26,395 bases of DNA from a virus, in the UHGV virus genome UHGV-0085321. The stretch is one strand, 5' to 3'. The position numbers were made by a program. This document shows, in pieces, positions 21,601 to 26,395 of the stretch (position 1 is its first letter; the number at the start of each line of letters is the position of its first letter).

Positions 21601-24600
21601 GGTAGCTCGATGGTAACAACCTGTCGAATCCGAACTGCTTACCACTCCTGCATGCGATGTCTTCTGCCAGCATCGTGGCAAACTCGCTTGCCGTACCCCT
21701 GGTAGTTTTACGCCATTCCCTGAACTGTGTTCTGAATGCCGAAGCTGCGTTTTTCTTCCCGGCTTTCCGCATGCCTGCACACCAGAATATTTCCTCGAAT
21801 GCCTTGTCGGTTTCTTCGTGACGGTCAGGAGTTTTTTCACACTCCGTTCGGACATGTTCGAACATAATGTTTTTAGGTTCATTGACTGGTTCAAAAGAGT
21901 GATAGGTTCTGGGGGCAGCTCCTGCCCCACCCCCTAGGGCAGCTCCTGCCCCACCCCGGGCAGCTCCTGCCCCACCTGATTCTGGTTGGATTTGTTGTGC
22001 ATTATCCAGCGTCAGATAAAAAACGTTTGACTGGTTAAGCTCTCCTTTTCTTCTGAATTCCCTTTTCAAAAGCCCCATCTCTTCCAGTGCCCTAATGTGA
22101 CTTTTTACTGTCGATCTGCTCACCTCACACTGGTCAGCGACATGTTGATATGAAGGCCAGCATTCGCCATTATCATTGGCGTTATCGGCAAGTTTAATCA
22201 GAACCAGTTTTCTCAGTGGGTTGCCAACCTTTATATTCATGGCCTTAGCCATAAGATTCATGCTCATTTTGACTTCTCCGAAGTTTTGTACCTGTTAAGT
22301 ATTTCTCTCAGTGGCACAGCTATTGCTGGATTAACCCCCTGATAAAACTGGTCACGTAGCACATCTTTTCGGTGATTAACGCGTTTATTTTCCTGCGTTT
22401 TTCGCATATAATTACCTCGCTGGATGTTGTTAAAATTCCATCTGGATTTGTTCAGAACGCTCGGTCTTGCACACCGGGCGTTTTTTATTGGTGAGTCCAT
22501 CAAGCGCATACTTAAAAGCCCTGCTAATCGGACTGATGTCTGATGCCATTCCGAAAGCACACAGGACCGAAGCAATAAACCGCCAGTCCGTTCTGCTTAT
22601 CTTCGATTCATGACAGCCAATCATCTTTGCCAGACCGCGCTGGGTAATAGTTGACAGGTTGATGAGTAAATCTGTTTCTGCGCGATCAATTTCTCGCTGT
22701 GTTGGCTTGCTGTAACTTGCTTGTGTCATTTGTTAATTTTCCAATAGTGAATAGTTAGTTGAAAGGTATGCGTGGAAACGCATATGGCCTTGGTTGGTCA
22801 GATATTCTGGGATTCGCTTTTCAGCGACGTAGGACGAATGTCCGTTGTTACAAAGAGCGGGGTTACTTATGCTGCCAAAAGGTTCTTTTTGCTTATTTCA
22901 AGCATTTCGCTTGCTTGATATTTGCCACCAGAAATCTCTTCGATTTTTGATGCATATTTCGTTTTCCCAAAAAACTCAGTCTTAGGGAGGAAGCCGTTTT
23001 TGAGCCACTTATAGACAGCCCTTTCGCTAACTCCACAAGCCTTCGCAACTTCAGGGATGCCGACACCTTTAATCGGCTCATCAAGATTTTGCATGTGGAT
23101 ATCCTTTTTCGTACTTTCAGTACGCATTATGATTGAACTGAAAGTTTTTGCAAGTGCTTTAGTATCGTACTCATGGTTCAGAATGAAAAAGTGCGCAAAG
23201 AATTCGCCCAGCGGCTAGCGCAAGCCTGTAAAGAAGCTGGTCTTGATGAACATGGTAGGGGAATGGCCATAGCCCGCGCCCTTTCTCTTTCGTCCAAAGG
23301 CGTTAGCAAATGGTTTAATGCTGAGTCTTTACCACGTCAGGAAAAAATGAATGCGCTTGCGAAATTTCTAAACGTTGATGTTGTGTGGCTTCAGCACGGC
23401 ACTTCGTTAAATGGAGCGAATGATGAAGATACTCTTTCATTTGTTGGCAAATTAAAAAAAGGGTTAGTGCGCGTGGTTGGTGAGGCAATTCTTGGTGTTG
23501 ATGGTGCCATCGAGATGACCGAAGAGCGCGATGGGTGGCTCAAGATTTATAGCGATGATCCAGATGCCTTTGGTCTTCGTGTGAAAGGAGACAGCATGTG
23601 GCCCAGAATAAAATCAGGAGAATATGTACTCATTGAGCCTAACACCAAAGTATTCCCGGGTGATGAGGTGTTTGTCAGAACCGTTGAAGGACACAACATG
23701 ATCAAAGTTCTTGGCTATGACAGAGACGGAGAATACCAGTTTACAAGCATCAACCAGGACCATAGGCCAATAACGTTGCCTTATCATCAAGTAGCAAAGG
23801 TGGAGTATGTAGCTGGTATTCTGAAGCAATCTCGCCATCTGGATGACATCGAGGCAAGGGAGTGGCTGAAAAGTTCGTGACTTCATCGTCACATAGCTGA
23901 TAGCCAGTGGCCTGAAGAGACGTTTGGCTGATCGGCAAGGTGTTCTGGTCGGCGCATAGCTGATAACAATTGAGCAAGAATCTTCATCGAATTAGGGGAA
24001 TTTTCACTCCCCTCAGAACATAACATAGTAAATGGATTGAATTATGAAGAATGGTTTTTATGCGACTTACCGCAGCAAAAATAAAGGGAAAGATAAGCGC
24101 TCAATAAACCTGTCTGTTTTCCTTAATTCTCTGCTGGCTGATAATCATCACCTGCAGGTTGGCTCCAATTATTTGTATATTCATAAAATCGATGGAAAAA
24201 CTTTTCTCTTTACCAAAACAAATGACAAGAGTCTGGTTCAGAAGATAAATCGCTCTAAAGCTTCAGTTGAAGATATTAAGAACAGCCTCGCAGATGACGA
24301 ATCATTGGGATTCCCATCTTTTTTGTTTGTTGAAGGCGACACCATTGGTTTTGCCAGAACTGTTTTCGGGCCGACCACATCCGATCTGACAGATTTTTTA
24401 ATCGGGAAAGGAATGTCATTAAGCAGTGGAGAGCGCGTTCAGATAGAGCCACTGATGAGGGGAACCACCAAAGACGATGTTATGCATATGCATTTCATCG
24501 GCCGAACAACGGTGAAGGTAGAAGCCAAGCTACCTGTATTTGGCGATATATTAAAGGTCTTAGGGGCAACAGATATTGAAGGGGAGCTTTTTGACTCATT

Positions 24601-26395
24601 GGATATAGTCATTAAGCCAAAATTTAAAAGGGATATAAAAAAGGTTGCCAAGGATATTATTTTTAACCCGTCACCTCAATTTTCAGACATTAGCCTGCGG
24701 GCAAAAGATGAGGCCGGAGATATTTTAACAGAACATTATCTATCAGAAAAAGGCCATCTCTCAGCGCCTCTGAACAAGGTCACCAATGCTGAGATAGCTG
24801 AAGAGATGGCATATTGCTACGCAAGAATGAAAAGTGATATACTGGAATGTTTTAAAAGGCAGGTGGGCAAAGTTAAGGATTAATTATCAGGAGTAATTAT
24901 GCGGAACAGAATCATGCCTGGTGTTTACATAGTAATAATTCCTTACGTTATCGTAAGCATTTGCTATCTCCTTTTCCGCCACTACATTCCTGGTGTTTCT
25001 TTTTCAGCTCATAGAGATGGTCTTGGGGCGACATTGTCATCATATGCAGGAACCATGATTGCAATCCTGATTGCTGCCTTGACGTTTCTAATCGGAAGCA
25101 GAACGCGCCGACTGGCCAAGATTAGAGAGTATGGGTATATGACATCGGTAGTTATTGTCTATGCCCTTAGTTTTGTTGAGCTTGGAGCTTTGTTTTTCTG
25201 CGGGTTATTGCTTCTTTCCAGCATAAGCGGCTACATGATACCCACTATCGCCATCGGCATTGCCTCTGCATCGTTCATTCATATATGCATCCTTGTTTTC
25301 CAACTATATAATTTGACCAGAGAACAAGAATAACCCGGCCTCAGCGCCGGGTTTTCTTTGCCTCACAGACTTAACAACCGCACATGTGGTAAACCGCAAA
25401 CCAACACGCCAGCAAAATCATTCTTTCTCCACAACTGACCAGTCTTCAACCTTTACAAAAATAAATTTCCTTATATATCAAAATCATATTTCGTAGAGTT
25501 AATAAATCACAAAATTTCGTACCAATAGTTCTTGATAATTTCGAACTATTAGTTCATTATTATCGCCATCAGCAGGAAGCTGGAAGCCAAACGGAACAGA
25601 CTGGCAGGCTCTTTAAACAACGTCGAACACTCGACTACGTGGCTGAAAAGCCAGATCACCCAACCACATAAGCTGTGGGATGCAATGCCGAAGCAACCGT
25701 CTCAGGAGGGGCTTCGAGATTGCATCGCCAAAGTTTATTCGGGAGGAATCTATGTCCAGAAAAACAGAATTTAAAGGAACCGCAGCTTCTCGCCGTAGAG
25801 CTCGTCGTGCAAATCTGCAAAGTCAGGAGGCGATCAGCTCCGACAAGCTACACAGGCCAACCCCTTCACGAGTGGTCTTGCAATGCAAGCGCAAACCAGC
25901 AATGAGAGCAGAAGTGATAACTCTGACAACGTTGACCAGAAAATATGAAGGTTCAACTTGTCTTCCAAACGTAGCTCTTTACGCGGCAGGCTACCGGAAA
26001 TCAAAACAACTGACGGCGAGGTAATTATGGGTCAGGAAGAAAAATATGAGCTTAAAAAGCTCATTGGAGAAGACGCCATAGAAGAAATTGCAGCATTAAC
26101 AACAGCTATAAAGAATATTAGGTATGCGCTAAATACGCTTATCTCCTCATGCGACAAAAATAGCAGGGAATTTTTGATACTTGGCGCAGCTCTAGGAATA
26201 GTTGATGCGGCAACGCTTCACCTAATTACTCATGACGATATTCTTATTGAGCCGTATGAAACATTACTGCTTGTCAGGCAAAAAATGGCTGATGCCGCAG
26301 CAAATGGAGACCTTCAACTTTACATCGACTTAAGGAAAGTATTAAGGCGAATGGTCAGAACTGAAGGAGATATCCCCCTGACAAAGTAAGGGGGT

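Follow-up and report, generated by a model that had tools for sequence, protein, structure and literature searches.

The viral genome UHGV-0085321, analysed as one stretch of 26,395 nucleotides (nt) and referred to here as the window, carries a lambdoid immunity region at its right end, inverted relative to the standard lambda map. This region contains two candidate N-utilization (nut) sites, nutL upstream of the N gene on the plus strand and nutR between cro and cII on the minus strand, each composed of a boxA, a long spacer and a boxB hairpin. Inside each spacer lies a further hairpin, which was absent from the preliminary description of this DNA. These elements are very probably the nutL and nutR sites of a lambdoid prophage with a 'reducer' spacer of the type found in phage H-19B, their specificity lying in the pairing of the arginine-rich motif (ARM) of N with the boxB loop. 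The architecture itself is already known from H-19B and 933W, and GenBank records of phages with an identical N already carry annotations of these sites.

Layout of the two nut sites and the N gene

A consensus scan identified a candidate pL promoter, TTGATA-17-CATTAT (25532..25560, +), from which transcripts would start at about 25568. The pL leader of phage 21, which has an annotated transcription start, matches the window leader from 25565 onward at almost every base. nutL is located about 40 nt 3' of the predicted pL start and 99 nt 5' of the N start codon. Its boxA, GGCTCTTTA (RNA GGCUCUUUA; 25607..25615, +), recognised by pattern and by a family covariance model, is rrn-like with three U residues and, together with its context TGGCAGGCTCTTTAA, is the same as the phage 21 boxA-L. 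The 24-nt spacer (25616..25639, +) reads as a 5' single-stranded part AACAAC, in which CAAY is conserved in the family alignments (25616..25621, +), a 14-nt hairpin GUCGA-ACAC-UCGAC indicated by folding and by compensatory changes across 78 distinct sites (25622..25635, +), and a 3' single-stranded UACG that is conserved in the alignments (25636..25639, +). boxB, identified by folding and co-variation, is a 5-bp stem UGGCU/AGCCA capped by a GAAA tetraloop (25640..25653, +).

On the opposite strand, the candidate pR promoter TTGCAA-16-CATAAT (23126..23153, -) from the same scan is homologous to the annotated 933W pR. The nutR boxA, CGCTCTTTG (RNA CGCUCUUUG; 22851..22859, -; pattern and covariance model), begins 8 nt past the stop codon of cro (22867..23094, -). 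Its 23-nt spacer (22850-22828, -) consists of a single-stranded UAACAAC (22844..22850, -), a 12-nt hairpin GGAC-AUUC-GUCC (22832..22843, -) and a single-stranded UACG (22828..22831, -); the flanks were assigned from the sequence and the seed alignment and the hairpin from its fold and co-variation. The folded boxB has a UCGCU/AGCGA stem and again a GAAA tetraloop (22814..22827, -). The preliminary description had correctly reported a boxA, a conserved-flank spacer of about 24 nt and a boxB hairpin at both places. Its nutR interval (22805-22849) does hold boxB and spacer sequence, but starts 2 nt past boxA, which falls outside.

The composite motif GCTCTTT / 23-24 nt / GCTGAAAAGC occurs in exactly two copies in the window. 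The patterns GCTCTTT-N15-35-GCTGAAAAGC and CTACGTNGCTGAAAAGC each match nutL and nutR only, against 0.01 matches expected from shuffles, and the family covariance model scores nutL at 64.7 bits and nutR at 51.5 bits; nothing else in the window exceeds 7.8 bits. An Rfam scan of the window (E up to 1) detected no family at the nut sites, the only matches being two tRNAs elsewhere.

The N gene (25752..26024, +) encodes a protein of 90 amino acids (aa) that matches Pfam PF25694 N_peptide (E 3.4e-32) and carries the ARM MSRKTEFKGTAASRRRARRANLQSQ within residues 1-25. The open reading frame (ORF) list offers an alternative of 114 aa starting at 25680. The start at 25752 (MSRKTEFKG...) is preceded by a Shine-Dalgarno sequence, GGGAGGA, and lines up with that of H-19B N; the VT2-Sakai record (AP000422) uses it for a protein annotated as 90 aa. 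It places the ARM at the N terminus, where it is required. N is a 90-aa protein and not the 114-aa product of some records. It is 100% identical to VT2-Sakai N, and the DNA of the N region is 95-98% identical to that of many Shiga toxin (Stx) prophages (VT2-Sakai, Stx1 and Stx2 converting phages, 2851, YYZ-2008 and others), the protein being 100% identical. Relatives of this N are encoded at 451 loci in IMG/VR, and no PDB relative of the full-length protein was found by sequence.

Sites homologous to the two window sites are annotated as 'putative N-utilization leftward' and 'rightward' in VT2-Sakai, whose nutL differs from that of the window only in the hairpin loop and whose nutR is identical from boxA to boxB. 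The 933W record (AF125520) annotates nutL and nutR at homologous places. VT2-Sakai and the other prophages with an identical N differ in their immunity genes; the window combines a cI/cro pair of the 933W/H-19B type with lambda rexA-rexB. The earlier placing of nut sites upstream of N and between cro and cII agrees with the canonical pL and pR positions, with the Pfam assignment of N and with these records. Both sites show the marks of lambdoid nut sites, namely their places in the pL and pR transcripts, a boxA of the consensus CGCUCUU(U)A, a co-varying boxB and an adjacent N with an N-terminal ARM. They also show those of the H-19B type: a spacer of >20 nt with a dyad, in which pairing rather than sequence is kept, and CAAY/UACG flanks in common with H-19B.

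Between nutR and cII, a tR1-like hairpin UAUGCG-UUUCCA-CGCAUA (22767..22784, -) can be read from the sequence and is likely the first, putative, terminator overridden by N. In the nutR-cII interval, the VT2-Sakai record places a 'putative rho dependent terminator for pR transcript', matched to this hairpin by position and not by alignment. The first gene downstream of nutR and tR1 is cII (22430..22729, -; Pfam Phage_CII, E 1e-35). For the window, the annotation is thereby fixed (N of 90 aa; exact positions of nutL, nutR and tR1), with an H-19B-type nut architecture apparently in use.

Co-variation in the spacer hairpin

Loci were collected by three routes (N protein, two boxB-containing patterns and annotated phages), and their sites were examined in a MAFFT seed alignment of 36 sequences (A5) and in an alignment of 78 distinct sites to the family model (A6). 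A profile search of genome contigs with the N alignment returned four loci only, two of them useful (Citrobacter and Tatumella).

Folded alone, the spacer hairpins of nutL and nutR have energies of -5.7 kcal/mol (z -3.6) and -5.2 kcal/mol (z -3.2), and the boxB hairpins -7.1 and -6.5 kcal/mol, respectively. The collection contains 33 distinct spacer hairpins in nine stem families, all between CAAY and UACG: GUCGA/UCGAC, GGAC/GUCC, GGCC/GGCC, GAUUCR/UGAAUC, GGUGA/UCACC, GAAGAU/AUCUUC, GGCA/UGCC, GGGC/GUCC and GGC/GCC. A satellite element contributes a further stem, GAAGG/CCUUC. The closing G-C pair of the hairpin is invariant, and the loop measures 3-9 nt.

On the 78 distinct sites, 90.4% of the alignment cells of the hairpin are paired, compared with 65.9% in shuffles. 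The covariation score is 0.583 versus 0.130 in shuffles; 0 of 500 shuffles reached 0.583 and slid registers gave <=0.099. Each of the three inner pairs occurs in 3-4 pair types with <=1 unpaired cell, and the MAFFT seed alignment agrees. The boxB helix is 99.5% paired on the same sites, its two outer pairs co-varying through 3-5 pair types. The flanks are nearly fixed: CAA is invariant in A5 and CAAY is present in 76 of 78 distinct A6 rows (two nutR rows have AAAT), while UACG is invariant in A5 and TACG is found in 77 of 78 distinct A6 rows (one has CACG). The spacer hairpin is a conserved structure with a free sequence, as the reducer idea predicts. Once it is subtracted, the single-stranded spacer comes to 10 nt in nutL and 11 nt in nutR; the corresponding lengths are 8-9 nt (lambda), 12-14 nt (phage 21) and 10-11 nt (ST104, a P22-type phage).

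The reducer idea comes from work on H-19B by Neely and Friedman in 2000, who reportedly noticed that the H-19B spacers carry dyad symmetries absent from other nut sites. Mutations in one arm are said to have inactivated NUT and compensating changes to have restored it, whereas deletion of the dyad reportedly had little effect; the stem-loop was, by this account, named 'reducer' for bringing the flanking elements together. Natural co-variation now backs a hairpin that earlier rested on mutagenesis of one phage. From the same work, H-19B N is said to require NusA and not NusB, S10 or boxA. That reduced need for NusB, S10 and boxA may not carry over to the window sites by analogy, because both of them keep a strong boxA, unlike H-19B nutL. 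At H-19B nutR, NusA and N protect the spacer and boxB, and Rho binds and protects the spacer (PMC3526286). At the lambda nut site, NusA binds the spacer only (PMC2724277).

boxB loops, ARM types and specificity

The Shiga-toxin phages H-19B and 933W (Neely and Friedman 1998, 2000; AF034975, AF125520) share with the window the order boxA-CAAY-hairpin-UACG-boxB, an identical nutR hairpin GGAC-AUUC-GUCC and a homologous N (~40% identity) with central and C-terminal motifs in common. They differ in the boxB loop, which is GACAA (as in the P22-type nutL boxB) instead of GAAA, and in the ARM, ...SRSRRRERLKAKA... (MTRRTQFKGNSRSRRRERLKAKA) as against ...AASRRRARRANLQ... in the window; the nutR boxB of 933W/H-19B and that of the window differ by a single loop nucleotide. 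A boxA consensus is missing from H-19B nutL (GGUGAAUAU) but strong at both window sites. The lambda sites resemble those of the window in their positions in the pL and pR transcripts, in the boxA-spacer-boxB order and in a 5-bp boxB stem closed by U-A under a purine-rich, GNRA-type loop, but have an unstructured spacer of 8-9 nt (about 8 nt had been given earlier), a GAAAA/GAAGA pentaloop, boxA CGCUCUUA and a different N ARM, MDAQTRRRERRAEKQAQW. The P22-type system (ST104 gene 24) has boxA GCUCUUUA and the C-terminal N motif LPDVALYAAGYRKSKQITAR in common with the window, and its single-stranded spacer of 10-11 nt equals the effective spacer of the window sites; it lacks the spacer hairpin and its loop is GACAA. 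The E. coli rrn boxA has the same three U residues followed by an AACAA-like sequence (GCUCUUUAAACAAC), although rrn antitermination proceeds without an N protein and boxB there precedes boxA.

Phage 21 shows a weak resemblance to the window in the sequence of its ARM and has a nearly identical pL leader and boxA-L; it differs in having a boxB with a 7-bp stem and a CUAACC hexaloop and a spacer of 12-14 nt without a hairpin. Window positions 25565-25615 (+) are ~96% identical to the phage 21 pL leader, and the likeness ends directly after boxA, which marks a recombination joint inside nutL. The family covariance model finds no site in phage 21 (E up to 10) and none in lambda. Because leader and boxA match phage 21, boxB does not, and the family model is blank in phage 21, nutL reads as a mosaic of a phage 21-like leader and boxA, a spacer of the H-19B family and a boxB of its own. 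Comparison with annotated lambdoid nut sites, as had been proposed, aligns the window sites with those of VT2-Sakai and 933W/H-19B and sets them apart from those of lambda, phage 21 and P22-type phages.

The preliminary description had taken the long spacer as the mark of a distinct specificity class. That argument fails, because H-19B and 933W have an equally long spacer with the same flanks but a different boxB loop (GACAA) and ARM; judged from these sequences, spacer length does not define a specificity class. The class itself probably does exist, resting instead on the boxB loop and the ARM, which vary together. The 159 loci with an ...RRRxRRAxLQ... ARM (32 distinct ARMs; E. coli, Salmonella, Citrobacter and other hosts) have a nutL loop of GAAA in 156 cases and GCAA in three, and GAAA at 127 of 127 paired nutR sites. 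The 85 loci with an H-19B-type ARM (four exact ...RRRERLKAKA... ARMs and five near-variants) have GACAA at 84 of 85 nutL sites and at 67 of 67 paired nutR sites. No selection on the ARM was involved, because sampling used both loop patterns. In the ARM-loop table, no locus mixes the types. The exception to the loop rule comes from Salmonella phage SPN9CC, whose ARM is of the H-19B type and whose nutR loop is GACAA: its nutL (L086 6845-6900, +) has an odd boxB, GCUC-CGUCAAC-GAGC, and reaches no more than 26 bits with the family model. Salmonella phage g341c encodes an N that is H-19B-like over most of its length, yet carries a ...GRRRERRAALQ... ARM and GAAA boxBs at both sites.

The window N/nut pair falls outside the H-19B/933W class, its loop being GAAA and not GACAA and its ARM ...RRRARRANLQ... 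and not ...RRRERLKAKA.... Because the variants of the GAAA loop remain GNRA (GCAA only, seen in nutL of phiSTEC1589 and nutR of locus L191), the most natural reading of the loop is a genuine GNRA tetraloop with a closing U-A pair; at one Tatumella site, the tetraloop is closed by C-G. A GNRA tetraloop and a GACAA pentaloop one nucleotide apart in an otherwise identical nutR offer a simple natural system for the switching of N specificity. An open-access literature search found no experimental description of a VT2-Sakai-type N/nut pair. Many Shiga-toxin prophages carry the window N, and which N acts where bears on cross-activation among co-resident prophages and satellites.

By analogy with the known systems, the pL and pR RNAs would present boxA to NusB and S10; binding of NusA, NusB and S10 at the window boxA is expected by analogy with the rrn boxA (PMC2724277). 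The middle of the spacer would fold into a hairpin, leaving ~10-11 nt (CAAC... and ...UACG) single-stranded for NusA, and the RNA would present a boxB hairpin with a GAAA tetraloop of the GNRA type closed by U-A. The spacer hairpin would thus act as a structural reducer that sets boxA and boxB at their usual working distance, its own sequence being unimportant. The N-Nus-RNA complex would remain with RNA polymerase and take it past the leftward terminators and, in the rightward direction, past tR1 to cII and the replication genes. Specificity would reside in the ARM/boxB-loop pair, placing the window phage in a VT2-Sakai/g341c class (...RRRxRRAxLQ..., tetraloop) that would be the sister of the H-19B/933W class (...RRRERLKAKA..., GACAA pentaloop).

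Several points weigh against this reading of reducer-type nut sites. The ARM-loop loci were gathered via the N protein or boxB patterns and include many near-identical prophages, so that the independent weight of the table is ~40 distinct ARMs and ~75 distinct ARM and nutL combinations and not the raw counts. According to Legault et al. in 1998, the extruded fourth base of the lambda pentaloop reportedly matters for the NusA-containing complex; a tetraloop boxB has no extruded base, and by analogy the details of complex assembly may differ. The cited experiments concern H-19B or lambda and not the N class of the window. In the minimum-free-energy fold of each whole site, boxA is paired to the 3' half of boxB and the boxB hairpin does not form, so that the two-hairpin form is not the sole possible fold. 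Finally, one locus (L046; IMG/VR 2531839234_000006) combines a window-type N and nutL with a lambda-type nutR, CGCTCTTACACATTCCAGCCCTGAAAAAGGGC. Its N lies at 3877-4146, nutL at 3730-3781 and nutR near 1135 (-), with ORFs of the size of lambda cI and cro (237 and 66 aa), and it is the only such combination among ~160 loci. Either this locus is a defective recombinant, or it hints at reading of the lambda GNRA-like pentaloop by the window-type N as well.

Three other explanations were considered. Rather than passively shortening the distance, the spacer hairpin could be specifically recognised as a second element, by N, by NusA or within the Rho-loading rut site at tR1, the long spacer altering which host factors are required. 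No site of the family lacks the hairpin; its position is fixed, its closing G-C pair never changes and its CAAY/UACG flanks hardly do, and the spacer of H-19B nutR is protected by NusA (with N) and by Rho (PMC3526286). Yet stem, loop and loop length (3-9 nt) vary freely, with 33 variants in nine stem families and with differences between nutL and nutR of one phage; such free variation is unexpected for a sequence-specific protein site. The little effect that dyad deletion is said to have had in H-19B also speaks against recognition of the hairpin, which we consider unlikely. Alternatively, the functional fold might be boxA paired with the boxB loop and 3' arm, with the spacer hairpin at the tip, forming a switch that hides boxA and boxB until N or the Nus factors bind. 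Energy minimisation gives this fold for both window sites. GCUCUUU can pair with AAAAGC, and the helix is paired in 63% of cells across the family. Against it, two-sided change affects only two of its eight pairs, both with many unpaired cells, the helix is broken in about one third of the sequences, namely the H-19B/Salmonella-type nutL sites without a boxA consensus, and the whole-site folds have z scores of only -1.8 to -2.0. The complementarity follows from the two consensus sequences themselves, and with the family alignment giving no compensatory change, the pairing was rejected as their by-product; as a functional fold it is very improbable.

The least probable of the three, to which we give hardly any credence, is that the N/nut pair belongs to the specificity class of phage 21. 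The preliminary description had called the ARM phage-21-like, which applies at most at the sequence level. A 31-aa ARM query against PDB has the phi21 N peptide (1NYB) as its sole match (EFKGTAASRRRARRANLQSQ vs ESKGTAKSRYKARRAELIAE; 12 of 20 residues identical, E 0.11), and the match of the window ARM to the phage 21 ARM GTAKSRYKARRAELIAERR is a weak one on a short stretch. The pL leader and boxA-L are, as described above, ~96% identical to those of phage 21. The likeness does not extend to the boxB, since a 7-bp stem with a CUAACC hexaloop is unlike the GAAA hairpin of the window, nor to the 12-14 nt spacer, which lacks the CAAY-hairpin-UACG module, and it stops right after boxA. With the boxB structure different and no phage 21 site found by the family model at E up to 10, membership in this class was rejected. 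Reducer-type nut sites read through the ARM/boxB-loop pair remain the preferred explanation.

Satellite islands and neighbouring genes

The family model and pattern scans also caught four satellite-like islands (L146, L329-L331) at thrW (tRNA-Thr), with the gene order integrase, structured leader, small helix-turn-helix (HTH) gene, antirepressor gene and primase gene. The HTH gene is called 'alpA-like' from its position alone, this being the place of alpA in phage-inducible chromosomal islands (PICIs). The islands carry tandem arrays of nut modules (L146 1500-1850, +; L329 7060-7345, +; also L330 9480-9960 and L331). In L329, the leader array opens with a lambda-like boxB, GCCCUGGAGAAGGGC, and a first boxA, continues with a reducer hairpin and its GAAA boxB (35.4 bits with the family model) and a second boxA, and closes with a GACAA boxB and a third boxA. 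L146 has further modules, including an exact lambda nutR boxB; the arrays carry one or two GACAA boxBs of the P22/H-19B type, every boxB comes with a boxA, and a 15-bp hairpin lies 3' of the array, ahead of the alpA-like gene.

In E. coli PICIs, alpA is turned on by helper phages via an unidentified inducer (PMC6092414, PMC11773190), and EcCICFT073 is a PICI whose alpA is known to respond to lambda and phi80. A literature search found no paper linking PICIs, alpA and antitermination. From its sequence, the thrW-island array may be a sensor of several helper-phage N classes that works by antitermination. We also entertain, with considerable doubt, a broader proposal in which the tetraloop boxB and the ...RRRxRRAxLQ... 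ARM constitute a separate, experimentally uncharacterised N specificity, a phi21-like ARM reading a GNRA boxB, and in which the same N would also switch on the thrW satellites by antitermination. The int-alpA region of EcCICFT073 has no boxB array, so the array is not common to PICIs in general, and sensing of this kind would concern one satellite family only. Upstream of its alpA (E. coli CFT073, L333 11180-11250, +), EcCICFT073 has ~8 short direct repeats of the ACAAC type, GAAACAAC/GACACAAC/GGAACAAC, that resemble binding sites for some factor.

Within the window, a long, stable hairpin is predicted 3' of nutL and 5' of the ribosome-binding site of N (~25668..25740, +, ends approximate), in the N leader, the region 25567-25770 folding at -69.4 kcal/mol (z -4.8). 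Its place is reminiscent of that of the lambda N-leader hairpin, which RNase III processes. The cro gene was assigned from the ORF list and a Pfam HTH match, and the cro-cII DNA is 93-94% identical to that of 933W/Min27. Downstream of cII lie an O-like gene (21491-22267, -; ORF list/Pfam) and a gene for a fused Toprim primase/DnaB-like helicase of 626 aa (19500-21380, -) that is not a lambda P homologue; Salmonella phage g341c has a toprim-domain gene of equal length (1881 nt) at the same position. cI (23173-23880, +) encodes a 235-aa protein of the LexA/S24 type, not lambda's cI, and is followed by lambda rexA (24044-24883, +; Pfam E 1e-97), lambda rexB (24899-25333, +; Pfam E 8.5e-92) and a terminator after rexB (25332-25353, +). 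Lambda rexA-rexB 3' of a non-lambda cI and beside 933W/H-19B-like cro-cII DNA make an unusual mosaic. No phage record reached 80% coverage of the rexB-N segment (25340-26030); among complete E. coli genomes, coverage of 22400-26395 was 69% at best.

A strong terminator-like hairpin of 12 bp with a T run (22454-22484, +) lies antisense to the 3' end of cII, where the lambda oop RNA terminator would be. The two tRNAs detected by Rfam (61.5 and 55.3 bits) are adjacent genes inside the prophage (15325-15477, -).

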